From: a bacterium
Lineage (GTDB): Bacteria; Hydrothermota; Tepidihabitantia; Tepidihabitantales; Tepidihabitantaceae
Reading direction: 5' to 3'
Length of the DNA: 64,000 nucleotides
Assembly (NCBI GenBank): GCA_035505375.1
Contig: DATJQV010000081.1
Location: 30,596 to 94,595 of the forward strand
In this document: in pieces, positions 2,128 through 52,244 of the stretch
How the letters are laid out: every line of letters begins with the position of its first letter
Position numbering within the stretch: the first letter of the stretch is position 1
The notes under the pieces: generated by a model
Told to the model about the DNA's origin: nothing
Database searches by the model: none
What the model saw: the letters and a program-made list of their open reading frames with translations, nothing else
Translations under genes and position numbers: made by a program

Positions 2128-2435
2128 TCGGGGTCGCGACGAAAACCGCGGTCCGAACCGCTCTGCAAATCGCCGTCAGAATCGCCGCGGCAGTCGCGGC
2201 GAGACTCAAACGGCGAATCACCGTGCACTCCGCCACGGAAACCGGGCCGAGAGTCGACTTCCGAGTGCCCTTGCGAGTCGCCATGGAAACCGCCTCCCGA
2301 ACCGCTCCGGGAACGGTTCCCAAGGCGATTCCCGACATGACCTTTTCAGCCGATACCGCGGCTTAACGCATAGTAGATTAACAACTTAGCTACAAATGAG
2401 CGGAAAATGGGTAGCGTCCCTATTTAGAGGACCGA
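2128..2435 (+). repeat. 12-nt phased degenerate array A (19 units, 2133-2360) plus AT-richer flank (2367-2435); inverted homolog of 51636-51995
   Basis: Units in exact register from 2133: gtcgcgacgaaa accgcggtccga accgctctgcaa atcgccgtcaga atcgccgcggca ... Consensus is RYCGCC-NNNN-GA. It is coextensive with a possible ORF 2049-2366 (ATG preceded by AAAGGA) of period-4 sequence x-Ala-x-x. All six frames are largely open here, so coding is unproven. Confidence 0.8.
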
Positions 2436-12247: not shown

Positions 12248-12368
12248 GCAAACCCGAAGCTCGAAACCCGAATGACGATTGAATGTCCGAATGACCAAAT
12301 GACGAAGGTCAGGTCTGACATTCGGGTTTCGGGTTTCAATCGTCATTCGGACTTCGGAATTCGTCATT
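12248..12368. repeat. Long imperfect inverted repeat built from tandem words (GAAACCCGAA / CCGAATGACG) between the uvrC start and the rtcB stop
   Basis: The 16-nt segment ccgaatgacgattgaa (about 12267-12283) is perfectly complementary to ttcaatcgtcattcgg (about 12333-12348). Flanking words repeat in both arms. A separate small palindrome cgcgcc-cta-ggcgcg lies at about 12369-12384. Confidence 0.6.
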
Positions 12369-12386: not shown

Positions 12387-13931
12387 TCATCCTTTGACCA
12401 CACCCAGCGGCTTCATGCGCGCCACCTTGCGGCAGATGCCTGCCCGTGTGCAGACGTCCACGACCCTGTCCACATCCTTGTAGGCGTCCGGCACTTCCTC
12501 ACGCAGCACCTCGCGGCTGGCGGCCATCACCATGATGCCCTTCGCCCTGAGCTCTTCGGCGACGTTGCGACGCTCGGTCTCCTTGAGCGCGCGGGTACGG
12601 GACCATACCCGGCCGGCGCCATGGCAGGCCGAGCCGAATGTGTCGGTCTCGGCTTTCTCGGTGCCCAGCAGCAGGTACGAACATGTACCCATATCCCCGG
12701 GAATCAACACCGGCTGGCCGAGATGGCGGTAGCGCGACGGCAGGGCGTGGCTGCCGGTCTGATTATGGCACTGGGTTCCGGAACCGGGCCTGGCCGGTCC
12801 GAACGCACGCGTGGCTCCCTTGCGGTGAACGCACAACCTGACGCAATCCTTGCCGACCGCGTGGGTCTCGAACTTGGCGATGTTGTGGGCGACGTCGTAG
12901 ACCTGGCCCATGCCCAGTCGCTCGAACGGAAGCCCGAGCACCTGGCCGAACGCCTCGCGTACCCAATGCGCGATCGCCTGTCGGTTCGCCCAGGCGTAGT
13001 TGGCCGCGCAGACCATCGCCCCGAAATAGCGTTTGCCCTCAGGCGACTCGATGGGCGCGCAGGCGAGCTGCCGGTCAACCAGCTCGATGCCGTACTTCTT
13101 CGAAACCGCGCCGAGCGTCTTCACGTTGTCGTCGCATATCTGGTACCCGAGCCCGCGCGAGCCGGTGTGGATCATTACCGTTATCTGGCCTTCGGCAATC
13201 CCGAGGTCTCGCGCTGCGCCGAGGTCGTAGACCTCGGCCACTTCCTGGATTTCGAGGAAATGGTTGCCCGCTCCGAGCGTGCCCAGTTGCGGCATCCCGC
13301 GTTCCAACGCGCGCTCCGACACTCCGGTCAGGTCGGCCCCGGCCATGGCTCCGTGCTCCTCGGTGAACTCGAGGTCCTCCTCCGTGCCGTAGCCCTTTTC
13401 GACCGCCCAGCGGGCACCCCGGGTCAGGACCTGTGCCACCTCGGTCTGCGAGATGCGGATCTTGCCCTTTGACCCGACGCCGGATGGCACGTTTTCGTAC
13501 ATCGCCCGGACCAGCTTCTCAAGTAGTGGACTGGTGCGGGACATGACCGAATCGTCCGACGATTTGGATCGTGTCCCAAGCCCGAGATCCTCTCGCGTCA
13601 GCTTCGTCCGGAGCATCCGCACGCCGCAATTGATGTCATAGCCCACGCCGCCGGGCGAAATGACGCCCTCGCTCGTCTCGAACGCGGCCACACCGCCGAT
13701 GGGAAAACCGTAGCCCCAGTGGATGTCAGGCATCGCCATAGACTGCCCAACGATCCCGGGCAGGGTCGCGACGTTCGCCACCTGCTCCGGCGCCTGGTCC
13801 TGCTTGATGTCCTCGAGCAGAGAGGTATCCGAGTAGATGATGCCGTCCACGCGCATCTTCGGATTGTAGCTCTTCGGAATCCGCAGCCGGGTATCGTCAA
13901 TCCGCTCTAACGGTCCGTTCCAGGTGGGCAT
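12387..13931 (-). CDS. rtcB: RNA-splicing ligase RtcB (3'-phosphate/5'-hydroxy ligase) carrying an in-frame repeat-element insertion
   Basis: ...GYDINCGVRMLRT...VPSGVGSKG...HTGSRGLGYQI...HRKGATRA...GQPVLIPGDMGT...CHGAGR. The start is trimmed to the ATG at 13931 (MPTWNGPLERIDD...). Confidence 0.9.
   Translation of the reverse strand: MPTWNGPLERIDDTRLRIPKSYNPKMRVDGIIYSDTSLLEDIKQDQAPEQVANVATLPGIVGQSMAMPDIHWGYGFPIGGVAAFETSEGVISPGGVGYDINCGVRMLRTKLTREDLGLGTRSKSSDDSVMSRTSPLLEKLVRAMYENVPSGVGSKGKIRISQTEVAQVLTRGARWAVEKGYGTEEDLEFTEEHGAMAGADLTGVSERALERGMPQLGTLGAGNHFLEIQEVAEVYDLGAARDLGIAEGQITVMIHTGSRGLGYQICDDNVKTLGAVSKKYGIELVDRQLACAPIESPEGKRYFGAMVCAANYAWANRQAIAHWVREAFGQVLGLPFERLGMGQVYDVAHNIAKFETHAVGKDCVRLCVHRKGATRAFGPARPGSGTQCHNQTGSHALPSRYRHLGQPVLIPGDMGTCSYLLLGTEKAETDTFGSACHGAGRVWSRTRALKETERRNVAEELRAKGIMVMAASREVLREEVPDAYKDVDRVVDVCTRAGICRKVARMKPLGVVKG
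13536..13586 (+). repeat. GGGACA hairpin element, copy inside the rtcB coding sequence
   Basis: gcgggacatgacc-gaatcgtccgacgattt-ggatcgtgtcccaagcccgag. Same architecture as the copies at 30536-30588 (+) and 19566-19616 (-). Translated in the rtcB frame as ...GLGTRSKSSDDSVMSRT... Confidence 0.75.
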
Positions 13932-15765: not shown

Positions 15766-18270
15766 CTACTGGCTCGACATTACCAGTCGCTTGTGGATGC
15801 GGTCGGTCTTGCCTGAGTGCTCATAGTCGAGCACGTACTCGTAGGTGCCCGGCGCGACATGACGGCTATCGTCATTGGTTCCATCCCAAGGTACGATGTG
15901 GACACCGGCGGTCATTGGCACTTGGTCATTGGTCATTAGTCTACGTACTCTCTCCCCGGCACGGGTGTAGATGGTCAGGCTCACCTTGCCGGCTTCGGGC
16001 AGGCCGATGACAAACGAGGTGCTAGTGCTGAATGGATTCGGGAAGTTGTGGATGGAGAAGCCCGGCATTAGGGTCAGGTTCAAGACGGCTGTGTCCGCAA
16101 CCAGCGTGTCATTGCCCAGGCGCCCGGCTATCAGGAACGTCCGTTGAGCAAGCGACGCCGTATCGCCTATCAAACCAGAAGACGCCGTCACATCGAGCGA
16201 GAACCAGCATGACTCGCCTGGGGCGACGTAGCCAAGGTCAGGTATTCCGTCACCATCCGTGTCCGTCAGGTCCTTCGCGCCGGCCGCGTCACGGAGCCAG
16301 ACGTTCCAACCCGCCGACGCGGACGGCCGCGCCACTTCGACAACTCCGCCAGTGTCTCCCTGAACCAGAGCATAGAATCGATAGGTCTTGCCTTGGCCGG
16401 CCTGGAGCTGGTCCGACTGGTCCGGCCCTATCTGCAACGACTGCGGATACGTCTGCACCGAAGAGCTGACCTTGTCGTTGGCACGGTTCACATCACTCGC
16501 CAGCATCGTCGAGCAACTTACCACCCATTGACCCGGCGGCGCTACCCATTCTGAGAACGTCAGGTCCATGGTGGAGTCAGGCGAGAGCGCCTGCGTTACA
16601 GTCACCGTCCTGCTATAGCCCGTACTGATGCGGAACTGCACCCCGAACAATCGCTCCGCAGTGGTTCCGAAGTTCTTGATTCTCACCTTCGGCATCGCGG
16701 TGTCGCCGGCGCGCAACAAGCCAGGCGGCGCGAGAATCGCGACCGCCCCGACATCGTGCCTCGGCGGGCCGTTCACCTGAATCGACTCTCTGAAGGTATC
16801 ATTGGCCGGTTTCTGGTCACCGGCCAGCGACGTGTAACACGTGACCGGGACTGAACCGACCGGACCCGCAGTCCACGCAGGGAACGCCAGTGTTTCCTGC
16901 GGCACCGAGACCAGCGTCTCCTGTACAGTTTGGGAATAACCGGAGCCGATTTCCATCGTCACCGGGAGTGTACCCGAAGTCAGACCGAAGTTGCGGACGA
17001 CAGCACGCGGGACATACGTGCTACCTGAATCGGCGATTCCGGGTGGCGACAGAATGGCTACCGGGCCGACGTCGAGAACGCCGTTGGTCTTGATGAGAAA
17101 GACGTCATCGCTTCCTGCACCGGCCGAGGCGGTGTAGCCCGCGACGACGTAGCCGCCATCGGCGGCCTGCCGGACCGAGTAGCCTTCGTTGTCGCCCCTG
17201 CCGCCATAGGTTCTGGTCCAGAGCGTGTCGCCCTGAGAATCAGTCTTGACGAGATAGACGTCACCGGGTCCTACAAAATACTGGGAGAAGGTCGCGCCGA
17301 CAATAATGTAGCCACCATCGGCAGTCTGCTGGACCGAGGAGCCGTACCCGCCGGGCGCTCTCCCATACACTCTGGTCCAAAGAGTATCGCCCTGAGCATT
17401 GGTCTTGATGAGATAGACATTAGAGTTGGTAGGTGTCCCCGGACCGAAGGAAGAGGTCCCGCCCCCGATGATATAGCCGCCGTCAGTAGTCTGTTGGACT
17501 GAGTTGCCCACGTCATCGCTTGTCCCGCCATAAGTTCTGGTCCAGAGCGTATCGCCTTGGCCGTTGGTCTTGACAAGGTAGACGTCATACCCCCCTGCAC
17601 CAAACGAGCCGGTACTGCCGGCGATGATGAAGCCGCCATCGGCAGTCTGACAAACCGAGTTCCCCACATCGGTGCTGGCCCCGCCCAAAGCTCGGGTCCA
17701 GAGCGTATCGCCTGAGCTATTTGTCTTGATGAGATAGACATTGGCGCTGTTCGGTGTGCCGGGACCGAAGGAGTAGGTGTAGCCTGCAATGACGTAGCCG
17801 CCATCCGAAGTCTGCTCGACGGAGTTGCCCACTTCGTCATCCAGCCTGCCAATAGCTCTAGTCCAGAGTGTGTCGCCATGAGCGTCGGTCTTGATGAGAT
17901 AGACATTGGCGTAGTCGGGCGCGCCCGGGCCAAAAGTGTTGGTGTAGCCCGCGATGATGTAGCCGCCATCCGAAGTCTGCTGGACAGAGTAGCCCTCGTC
18001 ATCGCCTGTCCCGCCATAGGTTCTGGTCCAAAGCGTATCGCCTTGAGCGTTAGTCTTGATGAGATAGACATCATAATTCCCTGCACCAAAGGACGCAGTC
18101 AGCCCCGCAATGATGTAGCCGCCATCCGAAGACTGCTGGACAGACCGGCCCTCGTCGTCATCTGGCCCGCCGTAGGTTCTCGCCCAGTTCGTCTGGGCAG
18201 AGGCAATCGAAGCAAGGCAGCCAGCGGACAGCAAGACGCTGACCACCGGCAAGACGCCGATCCTCATCAC
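15766..18270 (-). CDS. Large secreted repeat protein: about 7 tandem ~50-aa beta-propeller-like units, CARDB-like domains, T9SS/FlgD-like C-terminal domain
   Basis: 834 aa. Signal MMRIGVLPVVSVLLSAGC. Repeats of GDTLWTRTYGG..DD.G.SVQQT.DGGYIIAG.T.SFG.G..DVYLIKTN. C-terminus ...LTIYTRAGERVRRLM...VPWDGTNDDSRHVAPGTYEYVLDY. Confidence 0.8.
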   Translation of the reverse strand: MMRIGVLPVVSVLLSAGCLASIASAQTNWARTYGGPDDDEGRSVQQSSDGGYIIAGLTASFGAGNYDVYLIKTNAQGDTLWTRTYGGTGDDEGYSVQQTSDGGYIIAGYTNTFGPGAPDYANVYLIKTDAHGDTLWTRAIGRLDDEVGNSVEQTSDGGYVIAGYTYSFGPGTPNSANVYLIKTNSSGDTLWTRALGGASTDVGNSVCQTADGGFIIAGSTGSFGAGGYDVYLVKTNGQGDTLWTRTYGGTSDDVGNSVQQTTDGGYIIGGGTSSFGPGTPTNSNVYLIKTNAQGDTLWTRVYGRAPGGYGSSVQQTADGGYIIVGATFSQYFVGPGDVYLVKTDSQGDTLWTRTYGGRGDNEGYSVRQAADGGYVVAGYTASAGAGSDDVFLIKTNGVLDVGPVAILSPPGIADSGSTYVPRAVVRNFGLTSGTLPVTMEIGSGYSQTVQETLVSVPQETLAFPAWTAGPVGSVPVTCYTSLAGDQKPANDTFRESIQVNGPPRHDVGAVAILAPPGLLRAGDTAMPKVRIKNFGTTAERLFGVQFRISTGYSRTVTVTQALSPDSTMDLTFSEWVAPPGQWVVSCSTMLASDVNRANDKVSSSVQTYPQSLQIGPDQSDQLQAGQGKTYRFYALVQGDTGGVVEVARPSASAGWNVWLRDAAGAKDLTDTDGDGIPDLGYVAPGESCWFSLDVTASSGLIGDTASLAQRTFLIAGRLGNDTLVADTAVLNLTLMPGFSIHNFPNPFSTSTSFVIGLPEAGKVSLTIYTRAGERVRRLMTNDQVPMTAGVHIVPWDGTNDDSRHVAPGTYEYVLDYEHSGKTDRIHKRLVMSSQ

Positions 18271-18559: not shown

Positions 18560-19501
18560 AGCGCCACAGTAGTCATGGCTTGGCTCCGCTTTAGCGCAAA
18601 ACAGGACTTCAAGGCACGCACGTCTACAGAGCTACTATGCAACACTAACTAGTCAATCTAACTTCAATGATTACGTGTCTTACGTATACAGCCGCAGCTA
18701 TTTCTTCTACCATCACTGGCTTCTACTAGACCGTCTACCAGACCGTCCGGTAGACCGTCTGGTGGACGGTCCAGTAGTGGGTCCAGCGGTCAGACCTGTG
18801 GTTGGTATCGTAAACCATAGTTAGATTCGACCGGTAGTCTAACTATCGGATGGACTGACGGTTGCACTACTGGGTGGTATTCTGAGCGGACTATGGGTTG
18901 GTCTTGTGGATTAACAGGCAGACGGTTTGCCGATTGAACCTGCGTACGGACCTCAGAGCAGTACGGATGACTGTCTGTAGGGCGGTCTAGGAGACTGTGA
19001 GTTAAACGCTATGCCGGACTAGGCCTGGCTAGATGCGTGCGGTCAGGCTTCGGGCTTGGTCAGCGGGGGTGACCAAGCCGGCGAGGTGGCGAACCGTTTG
19101 TCAGACAGCACCGGTATGGCTTGGCGGTGTCTGCGAAGAGGAAGTCGAGAATTCCCCTCGAACTGTGTTCAAGGGAGCGTAGCAGGATGAATCTGAAGGA
19201 GCCATTGTCGGTGCGTCCGGGCGTGCGGCGAGTTGAGCTTTCGGGCGAGCTTGGCAGGGAGCAATGCTCTGAGCAGTTGTTTGAGCGATGCGAGGTCCAC
19301 TGGCGGGAGCATGCGAAGATGCAGGTTGAGGTCGACGTGGAGGTGCAGTTGGGATTCCGGTTGGATGAGCTATGCAGTTAGCCATGGACGATGCCATGGA
19401 AGGAGCGATGCGGCGTGCGATGTGAGGTGCTGTGTTCGCGTCTCTGCCGAGTCTGCGGTTCTGACCTTGGCGCTCTTGGCGGTTGCGACAGCCCGGGTCT
19501 T
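18560..19501 (+). repeat. 12-nt phased degenerate array C (65 units, 18722-19501) preceded by an AT-richer flank (about 18560-18721)
   Basis: Units stay in register with no indel. Early examples: tctactagaccg (18722), tctaccagaccg, tccggtagaccg. Later examples: cgtagcaggatg (19178 = 18722 + 38x12), aatctgaaggag, ..., cgatgtgaggtg (19418). The left half has consensus TC-N8-GG with stops in all frames. The right half has consensus C-N8-GAG/GTG. Confidence 0.85.
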
Positions 19502-19565
19502 GCGGCTCCTAGATTCCGGCCGGAGAATCTGCGTTATCTGCGTAATCTGCGGTTGTGCCTCTCGG

Positions 19566-19616
19566 TCGGGCTTGGGACACGATCCCAATTGCGGACAATT
19601 GGGTCATGTCCCCGCC
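19566..19616 (-). repeat. GGGACA hairpin element, intergenic copy
   Basis: The reverse complement reads gcggggacatgacc-caattgtccgcaattg-ggatcgtgtcccaagcccgacc. Confidence 0.75.
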
Positions 19617-25594: not shown

Positions 25595-25694
25595 GAACGG
25601 CTAACAGCCTACAGCCAACAGCTAGCAGCTCGGATACGTTTCCCGGTTCCAGGTCTGCAGTTCATCCCTCATCCTTCATCCTTCATCCTTACGC

Positions 25695-27065: not shown

Positions 27066-27250
27066 GCCGCCCAAGCCGGACCACCGGCGCAAGACCAGAC
27101 GAGTGCAGATGCTAGATGCTAGAATGCAGAACACAGAAGTTCGGGGCGCTCAAGCCTCCGCAATCTCGCTTCTCGCTTCTGACTTCGACCATGATTCCTC
27201 GTCCATCTGCGCCGGAATAACCAGTAGCAGCCCGAGAACCGAACGGACAA

Positions 27251-27289
27251 TCCAGAATTCAGAAACCAGAAATCAGAATTCAGAATTCC
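27251..27289 (+). repeat. Word-repeat family F1, copy 2 (upstream of the PIN/TRAM gene)
   Basis: tccagaattcagaaaccagaaatcagaattcagaattcc. Confidence 0.7.
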
Positions 27290-27388
27290 TGAACACTCTA
27301 CCTTCTGTACCCTGCCTTCTGCTTTCTGACTTCGGTCGTACGTTCTCGGGCCATACGCCTCCGGGTACCTGCCCGGGGCGGAGGAGTA

Positions 27389-30535: not shown

Positions 30536-30588
30536 GCGGGGACATGACCGAATCCGCCGAGGATTCGGATCGTGTCCCAAGCCCGAAC
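30536..30588 (+). repeat. GGGACA hairpin element, copy upstream of the MATE gene
   Basis: gcggggacatgacc-gaatccgccgaggattc-ggatcgtgtcccaagcccgaacgg. Confidence 0.75.
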
Positions 30589-31307: not shown

Positions 31308-31470
31308 TAATCCTGCCTTTCAGGTACTGATGAGGCACATACCATTATACTCGACCACAACAGAGCCCGCCAGATAGGACAACCGCAGATTACGCAGGTC
31401 AGCCGCCACCTGGCGCTCAAGTTCGGACACTGGAAACTGGTAACTGGGAACTGGAAACTCGCAGCCAAAG

Positions 31471-31746
31471 GCTGCGCTGAAAGCTCGTCAGAAAGCTCGT
31501 TTCAGAGTTCGCCTGAAAGTACCTTAGAAAGCTTACTCGAAAGCTCACTTCATAGCATCTTCCATTGCTCAGCTCAAAGCTCGTCACATCGCATCGCGCA
31601 TCGCTCATCTCAAGGCTCAGCGCATTGCTTCTCACATCGCTCGCTGCAAAGCTCCGTCGAAAGCTCGCGTCAGAGTTCTTTTGAAAGCTCGATTCAAAGC
31701 TCATCTCAAAGCTCGTTTCATCGCTTCTTCGAAAGCTCCCCAAGAG
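31471..31746 (-). repeat. 12-nt phased degenerate array D (23 units)
   Basis: A plus-strand unit start (G-C/T-T/A-C/T, mostly GCTC) occurs at every 12th position from 31471: 31483, 31495, ..., 31735. I checked all 23 by hand. Units look like gctcgtcagaaa gctcgtttcaga gttcgcctgaaa .... Plus-strand 31579-31606 is the reverse complement of a 28-nt block matching array C 19403-19430 at 23/28 positions. Confidence 0.85.
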
Positions 31747-31991
31747 GCAAGCCCCCAGGCGACCCCTATATGCGGATTTTCCGCGACACGACAGTATTTA
31801 ACCGACCGAGAGTAATTGAGTTACGCTCGGTTGGCGAGTGTCACTGAACCTCCAGTTCTTTTTGCCGTCTCGGTGAACCCGGAGTCCACTCGTTCATCGT
31901 TCCACGTCTCCGGTTTTGCCTTTTGGCTCTTGGCTTCTGCCTCTTGACCTCGTCCCCGCCGTCGTGTCCTAAGTCCTCCCCGTTCGGGCAT

Positions 31992-32031
31992 TTCTTGTTT
32001 CTGGTCTCTGAATTCTGGTTTCTGAATTATC
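31992..32031 (-). repeat. Word-repeat family F1, copy 5
   Basis: The plus strand reads ttcttgtttctggtctctgaattctggtttctgaattatc. Confidence 0.65.
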
Positions 32032-32063: not shown

Positions 32064-32423
32064 GTTCCTGTCCCCCATCCGGCCCTCGTTCCTGCGGCCG
32101 GCCCAGCCCCGGAAACAGCGGCCGTTCCAGCCGCTGCAACGGCAACCGCTCCGGCCCCATGCTCGGCCCTCGCACCAGCCTCCGGCACTCGAACCCCAAC
32201 AGCGCCTGATCCCGGCACTGCTCCTGCGCCCTGAACCGCACCTGGTCCTCGTATCGCAACGGCTACCGGCCCTGCTGCCGCAACGGCTTTCGTGCCTGTG
32301 CCCGTAACAGCATCTGTTCCCGGCCCCGAAACAGCGTCCGTTCCGGCCCACGTTCCCGCACCCGAAACAGCCGCCGTTCCTGCTTCTGCAACGGTATCCA
32401 GCCCTGCGCCTGCCCCATTATTC
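32064..32423 (-). repeat. 12-nt phased degenerate array E (30 units, partial 24-nt super-period)
   Basis: Plus-strand units in register: gttcctgtcccc (32064) ... gaaacagcggcc (32112) gttccagccgct gcaacggcaacc ... gaaacagccgcc (32364) gttcctgcttct gcaacggtatcc. From gaaacagcggcc (32112) onward, 21 of 26 units start with G. The minus strand is GGA-rich. A purine-rich (minus-strand) flank lies at 32460-32640. Confidence 0.85.
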
Positions 32424-35336: not shown

Positions 35337-37664
35337 GTGCAGAAGGGCACGAGCATGAATAGCGATTCACTGAGTCCGAGCGTTCCCCGCATTCCTGGTC
35401 TCAGGGATTCCGTGTCCGGGGCCGCGTACAAGAAGGGCGATGTCATTGGCCAGAAGTATGAGGTCTATGGCATTCTGGGAGCAGGCGGATTCGGCATCGT
35501 CTTTCTGGTCTATTCCCACGAGACCAAGTATGTATACGCCCTGAAGACCTTCCGGGATGAATACCTCGCAGATTCTCATGCGAGAGAGCGGTTTCGCAAG
35601 GAGGCAAGTGTCTGGGTGGACCTGGAGCGACACCCGTATCTTGTGCGGGCCTCCTACGTGGAAGAAGTCGCCGGCAGGTTGTTTGTCGTCATGGAGCATA
35701 TTGCTCCAGACGAGCACGGGCTGAATACACTCGAGGGCTATCTGCGACAAAGGCCACCTGACCTGGCCCAGAGCCTGCGCTGGGCAATCCAGTTCTGCTA
35801 CGGAATGGAATACGCGTACTCAAAGGGCATCCGTTGTCATCGGGACATCAAGCCTGCTAATATCATGATAAGTCAGGACAAGACGGTGAAGATTACAGAC
35901 TTCGGCCTGGCGGGGGTGCTCGGCCCGTCTCAGGCCGTCTCGGGAATCAGGTTGAACATCCAGCAGGGAACGGTCGGTCTGTCAGGCCAGACAATGGAAG
36001 GGACAGGCTTTGGCACACCGACCCACATGTCTCCGGAGCAGTTTACTGACGCTGCCTCCTGTGACGAGAGAAGCGACATCTACTCCTTCGGGGTTGTCCT
36101 GTTCCAGATGGCGAGCGGCGGCCGGCTTCCCTTCCTTACGCCTTTGCCCGAGGTGATAGGAGAATCGGAATCGGCCCGGTTCTGGAGGGAGATGCATCGC
36201 CTGCACACAAGAGCTCCCGTGCCAAAGCTCAACTCGCCGCTGTTTTCCATCATCCACCGCTGTATGGAGAAGGAACCCGGAAAGAGATACAGGGGCTTCG
36301 AGGAACTCCGCGGGGTCCTCGAACCATTGCTCCGACGTCTGACCGGAGAAGCCGTGAGACCGACCGAGTTGGGAACGCTAGAGGCTTGGGAGTGGAGCAA
36401 CAAGGGTTTCAGCCTCGACAGCCTGGGCCGCCACGAAGAGGCGCTTCGCTGCTTTGACAAAGCCCTGGAACTTGACCCGCGGGACGCAGCAGTCTGGAAC
36501 AACAAGGGAACCAGCCTCGGCAGTTTGGGCCGACACGAGGAGGCAATCCGCTGCTACGACAAGGCTCTGGAACTTGACCCGCAGCACACAAGCGCTTGGT
36601 ACAACAAGGGAACCGTCTTCTCCGGCCTGCGCCGCCACGAAGAGGCAATTCGCTGCTACGACAAGGCCTTGGAACTTGACTCGCGTCTGGCGTCGGCTTG
36701 GGAAAACAAGGGTACCAGCATGGGCAGACTAGGCCGCCAAGAGGAGGCTATCCGCTGCTACGACAAGGCTCTGGAACTCGACCCGCGAGATGCAAAAGCA
36801 TGGCGCAACAAGGGCAAGAGACTCGCCGACCTGAGTCGCTACGAAGAGGCGCTTATCTGCTTTGACAAGGCTCGGGAACTTGAGCCGCAGAACACGGAGG
36901 TCTGGTACGACAAGGGGTTCTGCCTCCACCACCTGAGTCGCTACAGTGAAGCAATCCGCTGCTTTGATAAGGCCTTGGAACTCGACCCGCGTCTGGTGTC
37001 GGCTTGGAACAACAAGGCTGTCAGCTTAAGCAGACTGGGCCGCCATGAGGAGCAGATTCGCTGCTACGACAAGGCCCTAGAACTCGACCCGCAGGATGCA
37101 CTAACCTGGCACAACAAGGGCCGTGGCCTCGGCGGCCTGCGCCGCTACGAGGAGGCGATTCGCTGCATCGACAAGGCCCTAGAGCTTGACCCGCAGAAGG
37201 CTGCGGCCTGGTACGACAAGGGGTTCTGCCTCCACCACCTGAATCGCTACGGTGAGGCAATCCACTGCTTTGACGAGGCCTTGGAACTCGACCCGCGGGA
37301 CGCAAGTACCTGGTACAACAAGGGTAGCGACCTCCATACTCTGGGCCGCTACGAGGAGGCGATTCGCTGCTTTGACAAGGCCTCGGAACTTGACCCGCGG
37401 AACGCAAGAACCTGGTACAACAAGGGCTGTTGCCTTGATGACCTAGGCAGGCCCGAGGAGGCCATAGGCTGCTTTGACAAAACCCTGGAACTTGACCCGC
37501 GGTACGGCATGGCATGGTACGCAAGGGCACTGGCACAGGAGAAACTTGGCCGAAGACAGGAGGCGGTTCAGTCGTACAGGCAGTTCATCGCGCTCGCCCC
37601 GGCCCAGCACGCGGAAGAAATCGCATACGCTCGGCAGCGTGTCCGCGAACTGGAAGCGAAGTAA
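35337..37664 (+). CDS. Hanks-type Ser/Thr protein kinase fused to 12 tandem TPR units
   Basis: GAGGFGIVF (G-loop), YALK, HRDIKPANIM, DFGLAG, GTPTHMSPEQ. These are followed by 12 units of ..W.NKG..L..LGRHEEAIRCYDKALELDP.... An alternative start is the ATG at 35355. Confidence 0.9.
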   Translation: MQKGTSMNSDSLSPSVPRIPGLRDSVSGAAYKKGDVIGQKYEVYGILGAGGFGIVFLVYSHETKYVYALKTFRDEYLADSHARERFRKEASVWVDLERHPYLVRASYVEEVAGRLFVVMEHIAPDEHGLNTLEGYLRQRPPDLAQSLRWAIQFCYGMEYAYSKGIRCHRDIKPANIMISQDKTVKITDFGLAGVLGPSQAVSGIRLNIQQGTVGLSGQTMEGTGFGTPTHMSPEQFTDAASCDERSDIYSFGVVLFQMASGGRLPFLTPLPEVIGESESARFWREMHRLHTRAPVPKLNSPLFSIIHRCMEKEPGKRYRGFEELRGVLEPLLRRLTGEAVRPTELGTLEAWEWSNKGFSLDSLGRHEEALRCFDKALELDPRDAAVWNNKGTSLGSLGRHEEAIRCYDKALELDPQHTSAWYNKGTVFSGLRRHEEAIRCYDKALELDSRLASAWENKGTSMGRLGRQEEAIRCYDKALELDPRDAKAWRNKGKRLADLSRYEEALICFDKARELEPQNTEVWYDKGFCLHHLSRYSEAIRCFDKALELDPRLVSAWNNKAVSLSRLGRHEEQIRCYDKALELDPQDALTWHNKGRGLGGLRRYEEAIRCIDKALELDPQKAAAWYDKGFCLHHLNRYGEAIHCFDEALELDPRDASTWYNKGSDLHTLGRYEEAIRCFDKASELDPRNARTWYNKGCCLDDLGRPEEAIGCFDKTLELDPRYGMAWYARALAQEKLGRRQEAVQSYRQFIALAPAQHAEEIAYARQRVRELEAK
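36370..37640 (+). repeat. Tandem ~102-nt DNA repeats encoding the TPR array
   Basis: Recurrent strings such as gaggaggc(a/g)at(c/t)cgctgctacgacaaggc(t/c)ctggaact(t/c)gacccgc recur at ~102-nt spacing. Confidence 0.8.
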
Positions 37665-44601: not shown

Positions 44602-45419
44602 CCCCGGATTCCCCTTCCCCCGTCCCAGTCGACAATCGACAATCGGCAATCGACAATCCCACTTCTCCGGCCTCAATCGACAATCGACAATCGAAAATCG
44701 AAAATCCCCCGTCCCCTGTCCTGGACGTCCGCCTCGACCTGTTTGAGGGCCCGGTCGAATTGCTGCTCTACCTTGTCCGAAAGAGCGAACTGGACGTGTC
44801 CGACGTACCGGTGGGCCGCCTGACTGACGACTTCCTCGGTGCGGTCCGCCAGGCCCGGAAACTGGACATGGAATCGGCCTCGGACTTCCTCATCATGGCC
44901 GCGGTCCTGCTCCGGATGAAGACCCGCGCCCTGCTCCCGCGCAGCCCGGAAGAGGACCTGACCACTCCTACCGTCAGCCTCGACCAGATCATGGACGAGT
45001 TCCGCCGCTACCAGCAGGTCGCCCGCATGCTTTCCGACAAGGAGTCGGAGCGCCGGCTGCTTTACCCGCGCGCCGGCGAGTCGCCTCGCGCCAAGCAGGC
45101 CGAAAGCGAGGACGTCGTTGCCCTCGCGGCCGCGCTGAAGCGGGTGCTGGCTAAACTCACCCCGGAACGCGTCGCCCAGATTGCGCCGCCCCGGGTCAGA
45201 CTGGAAGACAAGATCGCCGACCTGCGTCGCCTCATGCGCGAACGCCGGTCGGCTGACTTCGAGGAAGTCGTGACCGGGACCACAATCGCCGAAGTCATCG
45301 TGCTGTTCATCGCCGTACTCGAGCTGGTCCGGCTGGGCGAGCTGCGCGTCCGCCAGCCGGACGAATTCGGCACGATCCGACTGGAGTTGCGGGAAGCGGA
45401 CCCCGTTCCCAACGGATAG
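44598..45419 (+). CDS. scpA: Segregation and condensation protein A, N-terminus encoded by tandem word repeats
   Basis: ...LDLFEGPVELLLYLVRKSELDVSDVPVGRLTDDFL...ASDFLIMAAVLLRMKTRALLP.... ATGA overlap with the upstream stop. The first ~45 codons cross the CAATCGACA tandem words. Confidence 0.85.
   Translation: MTPDSPSPVPVDNRQSAIDNPTSPASIDNRQSKIENPPSPVLDVRLDLFEGPVELLLYLVRKSELDVSDVPVGRLTDDFLGAVRQARKLDMESASDFLIMAAVLLRMKTRALLPRSPEEDLTTPTVSLDQIMDEFRRYQQVARMLSDKESERRLLYPRAGESPRAKQAESEDVVALAAALKRVLAKLTPERVAQIAPPRVRLEDKIADLRRLMRERRSADFEEVVTGTTIAEVIVLFIAVLELVRLGELRVRQPDEFGTIRLELREADPVPNG
44625..44705 (+). repeat. Tandem 8-9-nt words (CAATCGACA / AATCGAAA)
   Basis: gtcgacaatcgacaatcggcaatcgacaatccc...tcaatcgacaatcgacaatcgaaaatcgaaaatcc. 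Confidence 0.8.
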
Positions 45420-45996: not shown

Positions 45997-46955
45997 GTTC
46001 CTCTTCCGCGTCCGCCAATCTAGAATCTACAATCTCCAATCTAAAATCCTCGGTTGGCGCCGTCATCCTTGCCCATAACTACCAGAATCCGGAGATATAC
46101 GACGTGGCCGACTTCATCGGCGACTCCCTGGAACTCGCCCGCCAGGCACGCGCGGCGAGCGCCCGGCTGATTGTCTTCTGCGGGGTCCGGTTCATGGCCG
46201 AAACGGCAAAGCTGGTCAACCCGGAAACCCCGGTCGTCCTCGCCGCTCCGGACGCGGGCTGCCAGATGGCGGACATGATAACGGCCGATGCCCTGCGCGC
46301 GAGAAAGAACCAACTGGGCGATGTCACCACGGTTGCCTACGTCAATACCCCGGCCGACGTCAAGGCCGAATCCGACATTTGCTGCACCTCGGCCAACGCC
46401 ATCGCGGTCGTGAATTCGCTGCCCCGAGACAAGCGCATCCTCTTTGTGCCCGACCGCAACCTCGCCGCCTACGTCGCCCGCGAGACCGGCCGTCCGTTGC
46501 TGGATCCCGGTTCGCCAAGCGCCATTCGCCAATCGCCATTCGCCATTGTTCCATGGGAGGGCTTCTGCTACGTCCATGCGTCTTTCCGGGCGTCCGACGT
46601 GGCGCGCGCCCGCCGTGAGCACCCCGATGCATTCATCGTCGTCCACCCGGAATGCCCGCTCGAGGTAATTGACGCCGCGGACGCGGCCGCTTCGACCTCC
46701 GGCATGGTCCGACTGGCGCGGGAACACCGTGAAATCGTGCTCGGGACCGAGGCCGGGATGTGCGACCGCATCCGCCGCGACCTCCCGGACGTGAGATGCT
46801 GGCCGCTGCGCCGGACCGCGCTCTGCCGGAACATGAAGCTCACCCGGCTTGAAGACGTCCGGGCCGCGCTGGAAGGCGGGAGGGCCGAGACGACCTTGCC
46901 CGACGACATTGCCGCCCGCGCGCGTCAAGCCATTGATCGGATGATGGCGGTGTAG
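45993..46955 (+). CDS. nadA: Quinolinate synthase A with repeat-encoded N-terminus and an internal in-frame low-complexity insertion
   Basis: ...AVILAHNYQNPEIYDVADFIGDSLELARQA...FCGVRFMAETAKL...TVAYVNTPADVKAESDICCTSANA...FVPDRNLAAYV...WEGFCYVH...VVHPECP.... Confidence 0.9.
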   Translation: MSSSSASANLESTISNLKSSVGAVILAHNYQNPEIYDVADFIGDSLELARQARAASARLIVFCGVRFMAETAKLVNPETPVVLAAPDAGCQMADMITADALRARKNQLGDVTTVAYVNTPADVKAESDICCTSANAIAVVNSLPRDKRILFVPDRNLAAYVARETGRPLLDPGSPSAIRQSPFAIVPWEGFCYVHASFRASDVARARREHPDAFIVVHPECPLEVIDAADAAASTSGMVRLAREHREIVLGTEAGMCDRIRRDLPDVRCWPLRRTALCRNMKLTRLEDVRAALEGGRAETTLPDDIAARARQAIDRMMAV

Positions 46956-48974: not shown

Positions 48975-49195
48975 CCGATACGCAGTTTCAATTGCGCGAC
49001 TTCGTAGCCTTCCAGACCACTGCCGCGAAGCCCGAGTAATCGGGTTCGAGTTCCGCTCCTCGGGTCGTCCGTTCCACTGGGCCCTGCGGCCGTGCATGAG
49101 TCGCGGAAGGCCAGTTATTGACAGCGCCCGAGACGGTGTATAATTGTACGGCTGCTGTCTGCTTCACAGCTCGGGTTTCGCCCAAAGGAGGACCC

Positions 49196-51604
49196 GTGAA
49201 CGTCCGTCCCGCCCGTGGTCCGTACAACCGAAGCGCCCTTGCCCACAACCGGGCCGCGTGCCCCATGGCCGTGCTGTTGGCCATTTGCTGCTGTCTGTCG
49301 GCGGCCAGCGGACAATCCGTGGAAACCACCATCTACCTACCCGGAATGGTAAACCCGGGGTGCCTGGCGTACGACTCGGCCAACAACACCATCTATGTCG
49401 GCGGCGATGGCACCTGTGTGCTCGCGATTGATGGGGCTACGAACCAGAAGATTGCCTGGATCCCAGCCGGGTCGAATGTGGGGGCCATCTGCTACAACCC
49501 GACGAACAACAGGGTCTACTGCGCGAACTGCTGGGACTCCACGGTGACGGTGATAGACGGCGCGACCAACGGGGTCATCGCCACCGTGATAACAGGCAGC
49601 AACCCTCTTGCCCTCTGTTACAACCCGGCCAACAACAAGATCTACTGCGCGAACAACGGGAGCAACAACGTGACCGTGATTGACGGCGCGACCAACGGTG
49701 TCGTCGCGACCGTGCCCGCAGGCAACACGCCTTGGGCTATCTGCTACAATCCTCAGAACAACAGAGTCTACTGCGCGAACTCCGATTTCCTTGGCAACGT
49801 TACAGTAATTGACGGCGCGACTAATGGGGTCGTCGCGACCGTGGCCACAGGCAGCTTTCCTCAGGCCCTCTGTTACAACCCGACCAACAACAGGGTCTAC
49901 AGCGCGAACATGGGGAGCGACAACGTGACCGTGATTGACGGGGCGACCAACGGCGTTATCGCTACCGTGGCCTCAGGCCGTTTCCCAGGGGCATTCTGCT
50001 ACAACCCGACCAACAACAAGGTCTACTGCGTGAATAGGGGAGGCGTAAGCGTGACCGTGATTGACGGCGCGACCGACAGCGTCATCGCGACCACGGGCGC
50101 AGGCAGCGGACCGAACGCCCTCTGCTACGACGCGACCAACAACAATGTCTACTGCGCGAACTTGGGCGACACCACTGTGACCGTGATTGACGGTGTGACT
50201 AACGGGGTCATCGCGACCGTGGCCGCAGGCAACGGACCGTACGCCCTCTGCTACAACCCAACCAACTACAAGGTCTACAGCGCGAATCGGTACGGCAACA
50301 ACGTGACCGTGATTGACGGGGCGACCAACGGCGTTATCACGACCGTGGCCGCAGGCCGCTTCCCTCGGGCACTCTGCTACAACCCGACCGACAATAGGGT
50401 CTACTGCGCGAACGATAGCAGCGCCAACGTGACCGTGATTGACGGCGCTGCCGACAGCATCATCACCACCGTTACTGCAGGTAGCAACCCTCATGCCCTC
50501 TGCCATAACCCGGCCAACAACAAGGTCTACTCCGCGAACAAGGGCAGCAGCAACGTGACCGTGATTGACGGCGCGACCAACGCGGTCATCGCCACCGTGA
50601 TAACAGGTAGCAACCCTCTTGCCCTCTGTTACAACTCGGCCAACGACAAGGTCTACTGCGCGAACGAGGGCAGCGACAACGTGACCGTGATTGACGGTGC
50701 GACGAACGGGGTCATTGTCACAGTGACTGCAGGTAGCAACCCTCTTGCCCTCTGCTACAATCCGGCCAACAACAAGGTCTACTGCGCGAACGAGGGCAGC
50801 GGCGGCGTGACCGTGATTGACGGCGCGACCAACGGGGTCATTGCCAACGTGATGACAGGTAGCAACCCTCTTGCCCTCTGCTACAACCCGACCGACAACA
50901 AGGTCTACTGCGCGAACGGTGGCAGCGGCAACGTAGCCGTGATTGACGGCGCGGCCAACACGGTCATCGCGACCGTGGCCGCAGGCACTAACCCTTGCGC
51001 TCTCGGCTACAATCCGACCAACAACAAGGTATACTGCGCCAACGATAGTAGTGGCAACGTGACCGTGATAGACGGCGCGACAAATGCGGTCGTCGCCACC
51101 GTGATAACAGGTAGCAACCCTCTTGCTCTCTGCTACAACCCGACCATCAACAAGGTCTACTGCGCGAACGGTGGCAGCAACGGCGTGACCGTGATAGACG
51201 GCGCGACCGACGGCGTTGGCGTGACCATCGGGGTCGGCGGGTACCCGATTGATCTAGCCTGGAACCCGGCCCAGAGCCGGATGTATGTCGCGAACTACTA
51301 TGGCTCCACCATCTCAGTCTTGCGCAATTCGCACCCGGGAATCGAGGAGAGCCCCAAGCCGCAGGTCGCATGCTCCAAGCCGTTGCCGACCGTCATCCGC
51401 GGCGTGCTGCTCCTGCCGAAAGCCACAAGCCGCAAGCCGCACGCTGCAAGCTTGCTCGACATCAGCGGCAGGAAGGTGATGGACCTGCGGCCGGGCCCGA
51501 ATGATGTGCGGGCGCTGGCGCCGGGCGTGTACTTCGTGAGGACAGCCCAAACCCAGACTCAAGTCCAAGCCCAAGCCATCCGCAAGGTCGTCCTGACGCG
51601 CTAG
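49196..51604 (+). CDS. Secreted YVTN-family beta-propeller repeat protein (about 15 units) with T9SS-type C-terminal domain
   Basis: AAAGGAGG lies 5 nt before the GTG at 49196. Signal ...MAVLLAICCCLSAASGQ. Units of GSNPLALCYNPANNKVYCAN.GS.NVTVIDGATNGVIATV. C-terminus ...LLDISGRKVMDLRPGPNDVRALAPGVYFVRT...IRKVVLTR. Confidence 0.85.
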   Translation: MNVRPARGPYNRSALAHNRAACPMAVLLAICCCLSAASGQSVETTIYLPGMVNPGCLAYDSANNTIYVGGDGTCVLAIDGATNQKIAWIPAGSNVGAICYNPTNNRVYCANCWDSTVTVIDGATNGVIATVITGSNPLALCYNPANNKIYCANNGSNNVTVIDGATNGVVATVPAGNTPWAICYNPQNNRVYCANSDFLGNVTVIDGATNGVVATVATGSFPQALCYNPTNNRVYSANMGSDNVTVIDGATNGVIATVASGRFPGAFCYNPTNNKVYCVNRGGVSVTVIDGATDSVIATTGAGSGPNALCYDATNNNVYCANLGDTTVTVIDGVTNGVIATVAAGNGPYALCYNPTNYKVYSANRYGNNVTVIDGATNGVITTVAAGRFPRALCYNPTDNRVYCANDSSANVTVIDGAADSIITTVTAGSNPHALCHNPANNKVYSANKGSSNVTVIDGATNAVIATVITGSNPLALCYNSANDKVYCANEGSDNVTVIDGATNGVIVTVTAGSNPLALCYNPANNKVYCANEGSGGVTVIDGATNGVIANVMTGSNPLALCYNPTDNKVYCANGGSGNVAVIDGAANTVIATVAAGTNPCALGYNPTNNKVYCANDSSGNVTVIDGATNAVVATVITGSNPLALCYNPTINKVYCANGGSNGVTVIDGATDGVGVTIGVGGYPIDLAWNPAQSRMYVANYYGSTISVLRNSHPGIEESPKPQVACSKPLPTVIRGVLLLPKATSRKPHAASLLDISGRKVMDLRPGPNDVRALAPGVYFVRTAQTQTQVQAQAIRKVVLTR

Positions 51605-51635: not shown

Positions 51636-52112
51636 TTCTAAATGGGGACGCTACCCATTTTCCGTTCATCTGTAGCTAAGTTATTAAAACACGACGCTTT
51701 AAGCCGCAATATTGGCTGAAAAGATCACGTCGGGAATCGCCCTGGGGACCGTTCCGGGAACGGTTCGGGGGGTGGTTCGGAACGTGACTCTCAAGGGAAC
51801 CTGGATGGCGATTCTCGGCCCGGTTTGCGGGGTCACGTACGCCGCGGTTCGCACTCCGATTCCGGAGCTGATTCTCAGGAGCGGTTCCAGGGCGACCTGA
51901 ACGGTGATTCGCCGTTTGAGTCTCACCGCAACTGCCGCGGCGATTCCGACGGCGGTCTGCGGAGTGGTTTGGACCGCGGTTTCCGTCGCGACTCCCAGCA
52001 TGACTTCAGAGCTCACGAGGCACATTGGTTCTGTCTCCCGCAAGGACACAAAGGGGTCGGGGACGGAAATCGACTCTCTCCGCTCGGTGCGCTTGGTGTC
52101 GTTCTGGTTCAA
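51636..52112 (-). repeat. 12-nt phased degenerate array B (34 units, 51705-52112) with AT-richer flank (51636-51704); inverted homolog of array A
   Basis: Plus-strand units in register from 51705: cgcaatattggc tgaaaagatcac gtcgggaatcgc cctggggaccgt tccgggaacggt .... Clear homology to the reverse complement of 2128-2431 up to about 51995, with an extra 60 nt (5 units). It is coextensive with track ORF 51699..52112(-), which ends at the same TAA as the array-A ORF. Confidence 0.85.
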
Positions 52113-52244
52113 AATCGGATTCAGTGAAACCGGCTGCGGTTTGACTTCTTCACGGCCCTGTCATATCATTAAAATACCGGAGCAGCCGAAGTCGTGGCTG
52201 CCCCGAAGTCTCATAAGCAGATATCATTGCCCGGAGGCAAACAA

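Follow-up and report, generated by a model that had tools for sequence, protein, structure and literature searches.

Two arrays of degenerate 12-nt units, here called A and B, lie 49 kb apart in inverted orientation within a 64,000-nt stretch of bacterial DNA (contig DATJQV010000081.1, assembly GCA_035505375.1, positions 30,596 to 94,595; the whole stretch is hereafter the window), and both belong to a non-coding intergenic element that is present in multiple copies and has so far been found in a single lineage of candidate division WOR-3 only. The periodic constraint on the element acts on nucleotides and is dyad-symmetric, with no protein-level selection in any of the six frames. On the strand of the open reading frame (ORF) that an earlier, sequence-only reading had traced through the arrays (the plus strand for A; hereafter the proposed frame), the element is organised as an array, a palindromic core and a tail, the last ending in A and B in a repetitive extragenic palindromic (REP)-type motif, and its parts are placed in the window as follows.

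2133..2300, plus strand: array A, 14 degenerate 12-nt units (-15 to -2), consensus RTCGCCNYGCRA, five units fewer than B, from unit stacking and scores and a periodicity scan.
2301..2336, no strand assigned: core of A, two palindromic 12-bp units and one inverted unit (...CGAACCGCTCCGGGAACGGTTCCCAAGGCGATTCCC).
2337..2401, no strand assigned: tail of A, with TAAC at 2364-2367 (containing the TAA of the proposed frame) and CTTAG at 2385-2389 as arms of a weakly supported hairpin.
2402..2427, no strand assigned: REP-type motif of A, GGAAAATGGGTAGCGTCCCTATTTAG.
51638..51663, no strand assigned: REP-type motif of B, CTAAATGGGGACGCTACCCATTTTCC on the plus strand, 34 nt past the stop of a type IX secretion system (T9SS)-type beta-propeller gene (49118-51604).
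51664..51731, no strand assigned: tail of B, with TAA/TTA arms as in A and the stop codon of the proposed frame at 51699-51701.
51732..51780, no strand assigned: core palindrome of B, GGGAATCGCCCTGGGGACCGTTCCGGGAACGGTTCGGGGGGTGGTTCGG on the plus strand.
51765..52016, minus strand: array B, ∼19-21 degenerate 12-nt units (-2 to -22) in the minus-strand reading, holding the 60 nt missing from A.

The family was defined by searching public genomes and metagenomes for the palindrome, for an 18-mer of the flank and for a pattern extending from the core into the tail; 36 non-identical copies were analysed in detail, as well as 74-76 recovered via the palindrome alone. Array-bearing copies were recovered only from WOR-3 metagenome-assembled genomes (MAGs) and from unclassified MAGs with the same elements, and they are numerous within single bins: at least 14 loci in UBA2258, 12 in LacPavin MAG_62_12, 11 and 8 in the two bins SRP178699_co1_414 and _229, and 6 each in Zod_Metabat.816 and SRP098346_co1_22. 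Palindrome matches in other phyla were in no case accompanied by an array, and a phage origin was rejected, as viral contigs gave just two chance matches. A search of the literature on 12-nt arrays or WOR-3 repeats returned no relevant description.

Homology of A and B in inverted orientation, as claimed in the sequence-only reading, was borne out both by pairwise alignment and by a repeat finder. A (2133-2427, plus strand) and B (51638-52016, minus strand) are ∼78-83% identical, the reverse complement of ∼2128-2430 being homologous to 51637-51995, and the repeat finder returned two inverted pairs, I1 (2213-2428 and 51637-51852, 79%) and I2 (2130-2281 and 51844-51995, 77%), offset from each other by exactly 60 nt. 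The anchors GGCCCGGTTT and GGTGATTCGCC enclose 16 nt in A and 76 nt in B, a single gap of 60 nt or 5 units, which confirms the exact indel reported earlier and, for A versus B, a change of length in whole units; with the gap taken out, identity is 83% over 231 nt. The flank described as near-identical is equally real, the 20-nt CGGAAAATGGGTAGCGTCCC occurring exactly twice in the window, at A and B alone, against 0.01 occurrences expected, and homology ends abruptly at the far array end and just beyond the flank motif. Neither array was called by Tandem Repeats Finder, the units being too degenerate; a motif-free periodicity scan detected a strong 12-nt phase at both, with a relative entropy per column of 0.58-0.63 at period 12 versus 0.13-0.22 at 9 and 15.

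Within the A/B family, arrays are sharply bounded runs of ∼20-22 units of 12 nt, none longer having been seen, with a norm of ∼20-21 units; B has ∼19-21, and A, with ∼14-15, is the exception. Because A falls short of the ∼20-22 units usual in the family, the 5-unit difference from B is an in-register deletion in A. The unit consensus is dyad-symmetric (R-T-C-G-C-C-N-Y-G-C-R-A over 714 units) and its conservation strongly position-dependent, from 0.12 to 1.03 bits, with C3 (0.80), T2 (0.76), A12 (0.73) and C5 (0.67) best kept and positions 6-7 essentially free. The core is the best-conserved part of the family: a near-invariant, perfect 12-1-12 palindrome, GGGAACCGTTCC-S-GGAACGGTTCCC, comprising two perfect 11-bp palindromes spaced 12 bp apart and set within a longer imperfect inverted repeat (full form ...CGAACCGTTCC-S-GGAACGGTTCCC-NN-GGCGATTCCC; 2285-2333 in A). 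The ∼65-nt tail conserves TAAC and CTTAG at fixed spacing and is otherwise variable across the family; in the A/B subfamily it terminates in the REP-type motif GGAAAATGGGTAGCGTCCC(C/T)ATTTA, which also stands at the 3' end of a Y1 transposase gene of the REP-associated tyrosine transposase (RAYT) type in related genomes.

The observations on which a coding reading had been based, with products of 105 and 137 aa, are correct as described: the proposed frame is open in both copies and ends at a common TAA (2364-2366 in A, 51699-51701 in B), and in A it begins at an ATG at 2049 behind a Shine-Dalgarno-like AAAGGA. The coding reading itself is refuted, also by the dN/dS comparison that had been put forward with it. 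Run as the ratio of non-synonymous to synonymous differences per site (pN/pS), this gave 1.18 for A and B in the proposed frame, from 29 non-synonymous and 10 synonymous differences, and 0.97 when ten related pairs were pooled; across the six frames it was 0.64-0.98, never falling below 0.64. The control, the adjacent radical-SAM HydG-like gene against its UBA2258 orthologue at the same 85% identity, gave 0.10. Stop codons across the 36 copies number 23 in the proposed frame against 24.3 expected from position-specific composition, interrupting 20 of the 36, and in all six frames stop numbers match that composition; the open frames are therefore a by-product of periodic base composition. The +2 frame is the most open (7 stops versus 14 expected), a depletion that is not convincing. 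The suspicion that CGA and AGA codons are out of place was upheld, as they make up 8/9 of the Arg codons in A and 8/10 in B (80-89%) versus 11% in 11,075 codons of real genes. The start is not conserved, the ATG at 2049 running into a stop directly after MKSPISQR in the syntenic UBA2258 copy (L028); no frame of the arrays has a match in Pfam, and a search of 5.8 billion protein clusters turned up nothing related to the 137-aa product. Conservation also runs against the codon: unit positions 3 and 12, which are third codon positions in the proposed frame, are among the most conserved and first positions the most variable, while in the +2 frame second positions vary most. Stop counts, pN/pS with its control, codon usage, Pfam and the protein-cluster search together rule out coding in all six frames, and long ORFs over these arrays should not be called genes in annotation.

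A nucleic-acid-level constraint on GA-RYC-GCC, the other possibility raised in the sequence-only reading, is supported and sharpened, the best-kept positions T2, C3 and A12 including the third codon positions of the proposed frame. Position 1 is the centre of dyad symmetry in the unit profile, with r = 0.57 there and no more than 0.30 at any other centre; such units, together with the paired palindromes of the core, are a hallmark of sites that a dimer reads as double-stranded DNA. Searched as RNA, the element has no match in Rfam at the gathering threshold and only chance hits up to E 10, and a known RNA family was rejected on this result. Over the 36 copies, array folding is close to that of dinucleotide shuffles (z = -0.2 on the strand of the proposed frame, -0.7 on the opposite strand), and with z-scores near 0 both a structured and a deliberately unstructured array RNA were rejected. 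RNAalifold predicts the invariant palindrome alone, with a negligible covariation term of -0.76 kcal/mol, and no covariation was seen beyond invariant pairs: the tail and REP hairpins are both weakly supported, the tail hairpin showing only a little compensatory change, and the 7-bp stem of the REP motif is perfect in the G variant (B) only, with an A-C mismatch in A and no compensatory changes. Other candidates fared no better. The 12-nt units as mini-hairpins were rejected, with no pairing excess and no mutual information; an own sigma-70 promoter in the AT-richer tail was rejected as not conserved, and no conserved promoter or terminator was found; and a GANTC methylation motif was rejected, being carried by a minority of units only.

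Comparison of copies shows that partners are exchanged at the palindrome, array and tail sides reassorting exactly there. Tail-side and array-side pairwise identities are uncoupled: between L064 and L075 the tail and 150 nt past the REP motif are 100% identical and the array is at background (∼50%); L034 and B have the upstream gene, REP motif and tail in common (84%) and not the array (47%); and L056 combines the tail of L026 (90%) with the array of L027 (86%). Unit-by-unit profiles of the mosaic pairs examined place the switch points where unit -3 meets unit -2, on the array-side margin of the core, and the asymmetric centre base of the palindrome occurs in both orientations (G 54, C 22). 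L026, L027 and L056 are each present in two or three independent assemblies, and assembly chimeras are therefore unlikely to explain all mosaics. A is nearer to B than to its syntenic counterpart in UBA2258, the L028 array, with which it is 71% identical, while the genes flanking the two loci are 85% identical and the segment 1996-2069 is 94.6% identical; this points to replacement or conversion between copies within a genome. The UBA2258 locus carries, between the REP motif and DUF192 gene, a YNCE-type beta-propeller gene of 2.7 kb (L028 5150-7880) that has a T9SS-like tail; it is absent at locus A (2428-2443), and a paralogue of it adjoins B. This is a gene-scale rearrangement bounded by the element. 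Syntenic sites differ in content elsewhere as well, as between L171 and 31.3-33 kb of the window.

The best guess that can be offered, tentatively and at somewhat less than an even chance, is that the element offers a dimeric protein a binding platform of double-stranded DNA, with the core doubling as a recombination junction. Acting as double-stranded DNA, it would be bound by a dimeric sequence-specific protein that nucleates on the two perfect palindromic core units and then polymerises cooperatively along the phased, weaker half-palindromic units, the product being a nucleoprotein filament ∼260-290 bp long. The palindrome, as the point of partner exchange, could be a recombination junction for which the array forms a one-sided accessory arm.

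Several points weigh against this proposal. A candidate binding protein was not found among the ORFs near A and B, no cognate binding-protein or partition gene stands among their neighbours, and no recombinase, transposase or small DNA-binding gene adjoins either copy. A 12-bp period is out of step with the 10.5-bp helical repeat, so that bound proteins would spiral around the DNA and not line one face, and several array families of differing motif would each need a reader of their own. The mosaic junctions could be plain homologous recombination on a conserved stretch of ∼50 bp, or could arise partly in metagenome assembly. On the strand opposite the proposed frame, two pairs of the outer stem of the core are G-U, where its complement would have A-C mismatches; this fits an RNA hairpin on the strand with the G-U pairs. 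Finally, the REP end adjoins the 3' end of a co-directional gene in ∼16/19 interpretable contexts, a bias easier to explain by transcription or by the mode of REP insertion, with the array end facing gene starts and gene ends equally.

The last two points lead to a non-coding RNA, either a protein-binding transcript or a Rho-loading site, an explanation to which only a minor share of the probability can be given. In the first form, the strand opposite the proposed frame is transcribed, co-directionally with the flanking genes at A and B, and yields a long 5' palindrome hairpin followed by ∼20 single-stranded GGCGAYTY motifs, a sponge or scaffold for an RNA-binding protein; the outer stem, fully paired through G-U wobbles on this strand only, and the REP end, nearly always behind a co-directional gene, are in its favour. 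In the second, transcription of the strand of the proposed frame produces an idealised Rho-loading site, with YC once per 12 nt and C in excess of G (36% versus 27%), followed by pause hairpins; T2-C3 are the two best-conserved positions of the unit, and on that strand the array is followed by the palindromes. Rho loading agrees with the YC spacing, the excess of C and the downstream hairpins, but is at odds with the high G content and with a predicted structure so strong, at -33 kcal/mol per 100 nt, that it bears little resemblance to the unstructured RNA preferred by Rho. Both forms have to contend with the negative Rfam, promoter, terminator, covariation and shuffling results given above, with a dyad symmetry of the units that single-strand recognition does not require, and with a further array of the window (E, below) whose orientation to its neighbours is the opposite one.

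A selfish or neutral repeat, that is, a REP-derived, non-autonomous element akin to a bacterial interspersed mosaic element (BIME) and free of host function, is likewise unlikely on present evidence. It would have spread by a transposase of the RAYT type, or by duplication together with T9SS cargo genes, and the array would consist of transposase-binding subterminal repeats or be a slippage by-product of the palindromic unit. High copy number, mosaic copies and variable content at the syntenic sites are all as expected, and ∼10/36 copies lie directly behind genes with a T9SS-like ...GVYFVR...KVVITR tail, these genes being paralogous. The end motif of A and B also bears on the question, and is of REP type and tied to a RAYT-like transposase, because it overlaps the stop codon of a Y1_Tnp (PF01797) gene in L021, L010 and L020 and forms inverted doublets ∼55 nt apart, the latter in a Planctomycetaceae MAG only (L009, L013, L019, L022, L025). 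The RAYT-like gene of L021 (1406-2080, 224 aa), from WOR-3 UBA2258 and related MAGs, ends ...GRQENG inside the motif; L010 and L020 have the like, and L012 a related gene. Against a selfish origin, the REP motif is present in only 15/73 palindrome-found arrays, and is therefore a subfamily feature and not an obligatory part; no RAYT gene was found in the window; no terminal inverted repeats or target duplications were found at the sharp array boundary, the empty-site comparison for insertion boundaries having only partial synteny to draw on; and position-specific conservation with a fixed unit number across diverged types is unlike neutral decay. A small tetrapeptide-repeat protein, in the frame ending ...AIPDMTFSADTAA before its stop codon or in another, is highly improbable in the face of the coding results.

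The element can be set beside several known systems. REP/BIME elements and REP doublets forming hairpins (REPINs) with their RAYT genes, in enterobacteria and pseudomonads, are likewise multicopy, extragenic and usually at gene 3' ends, are mosaics of a short palindromic motif and others whose copies recombine, and share their motif with sequence flanking one RAYT-type gene of the Y1 (IS200-like) group; neither a fixed ∼20-unit degenerate 12-bp run nor a 12-1-12 palindrome is in any described BIME or REPIN, however, and the WOR-3 copies hold REP singlets, not inverted doublets, with about one-fifth of the arrays carrying the motif. Iteron and centromere arrays are bound by small dimeric proteins, including ParR on 11-bp parC repeats, TubR on 12-bp tubC repeats, omega on heptads and MetJ on metboxes; these have 2-10 units, occur on plasmids or as single operators, and stand beside the gene of the binding protein. 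The WOR-3 arrays resemble them in their contiguous, phased short repeats with partial dyad symmetry, and would similarly be sites of cooperative filaments, but run to ∼20 units, recur dozens of times on the chromosome, fall into several motif families and lack a partner gene. Accessory arms on one side of a recombination site are familiar from cer/psi-Xer, res-resolvase and attP, whose known arms are not periodic arrays; a palindromic exchange core with ∼150-260 bp of accessory sequence on one side is common to these and the WOR-3 element, for which a recombinase was not found among the Pfam-scanned ORFs and exchange could be plain homologous recombination.

Neisseria dRS3 repeats and neisserial intergenic mosaic elements (NIME) sit near surface-protein genes, and the WOR-3 elements are likewise mosaic and near T9SS-tailed genes. 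Cyanobacterial short tandemly repeated repetitive (STRR) sequences are resembled by the 7-nt tandem islands that fill the intergenic regions of the window, from which the 12-nt arrays differ in period and length. Tandem units alternating conserved and variable segments are also a property of clustered regularly interspaced short palindromic repeats (CRISPR) and of tandem interspaced guide RNA (TIGR) arrays, the latter with 36-nt units containing two 8-12-nt spacers beside a Nop-domain Tas gene (PMC12045711). The WOR-3 unit has 12 nt with ∼5 variable bases, whereas CRISPR repeats and spacers are each >20 nt; CRISPR and TIGR were both rejected on unit size and on the lack of a Tas or Cas gene in the window.

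None of the systems compared joins a fixed ∼20-unit degenerate 12-bp run to a 12-1-12 palindrome. The element belongs with intergenic mosaic repeats in kind, and there is a real chance that it constitutes a new functional class. A bolder version, for which the probability must be put low, is that WOR-3 bacteria may carry an undescribed class of elements in which fixed-length arrays (∼20-24 x 12 bp) of dyad-symmetric units, in several sequence families and dozens per genome, form nucleoprotein filaments nucleated by a perfect palindrome that is also a recombination junction. Such filaments would shape or rearrange the chromosome, for example by reshuffling what flanks secreted-protein genes or by inverting segments such as the 49 kb between A and B. 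If functional, the arrays account for a considerable, as yet uncharacterised share of the genomes in a phylum without cultured members, and their regular geometry (a 12-bp period, mostly ∼20-24 units and a palindromic point of nucleation and exchange) makes a direct biochemical test possible. Reassortment centred on the palindrome points to a way in which the surroundings of type IX-secreted protein genes could be rearranged.

Further arrays in the window bear on the generality of this plan, the periodicity scan having detected four more with a 12-nt period and other sequence types, for a total of six in 64 kb.

18712-19011, no strand given: array E, ∼24 units, the end units being perfect GAC-S-GTC palindromes (TAGACCGTCTAC, GGACGGTCC).
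19180-19443, units read on the minus strand: array F, of the C type (AGCTCnnnnSAA), ∼22-23 units.
31478-31753, plus strand: array C, unit AGCTCnnnnSAA, ∼22-23 units.
∼32090-32420, no strand given: array D, 12/24-nt period, with CGAAACAGCG-like and CCGTTCC-like units alternating.

The palindromic end units of array E decay into half-conserved ones, the same plan of a core with a degenerate array as in A and B; it lies upstream of a T9SS cargo gene on the minus strand (15766-18270) and is oriented opposite to A and B relative to its neighbouring genes. The C type, with its dyad at AGCT, is multicopy in the same WOR-3 MAGs, mostly with 18-26 units (range 11-26), and behind its arrays stand a GC-rich hairpin and a tail, TAAC-N20-TTAG, resembling that of A and B. 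Array D is located in a gap of 1.7 kb that separates a HicA-like gene from a Schlafen/AlbA_2 gene; at the syntenic position L171 has an array of the A/B type instead.

The genomic setting of the arrays is otherwise unexceptional. A is flanked by a DUF192 gene and a TM1266/HydG operon, and B by the T9SS-tailed, YNCE-type beta-propeller gene and an S8 peptidase gene with a Por_Secre_tail; the rest of the window is ordinary chromosome (PPDK, UvrC, RtcB, DnaB, RadA, ClpB, ScpA, NadA, RibBA), and a Pfam scan of the window ORFs detected no recombinase, transposase, Nop or Cas domain. Between array A and the TM1266 gene, the segment 1996-2069 contains a promoter-like TTGACA-17-TATCCT on the minus strand as well as a GGGCAGGC/GCCGGCCC hairpin, and a similar promoter-like site is found at 52141-52169, between B and the S8 peptidase gene. 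Two coding repeats were also recorded, one of 126 nt with 13.7 in-frame copies (49484-51213) in the beta-propeller gene beside B, and one of 102 nt with 10.9 in-frame copies (36393-37506) and a spacing like that of tetratricopeptide repeats (TPR).

Heptamer islands of 4-11 tandem 7-nt units, each with a unit of its own (TTGGCTC, GGAAACT, AATTCAG, TCGACAA and others), are intergenic and often directly beside 12-nt arrays, examples being 1404-1544, 12250-12363, 25596-25690, 27107-27333, 31425-31459, 31898-32028, 44629-44706 and 46511-46547. A 48-nt repeat, GGGACATGACCGAATC...GATCGTGTCCCAAGCCCGA, with GGGAC/GTCCC arms, is present at 13538-13585, 30539-30586 and, inverted, 19558-19589, with 92% identity between two copies, and related GGGACTGTCCC palindromes flank arrays of other MAGs, in L015, L018, L023 and L080.

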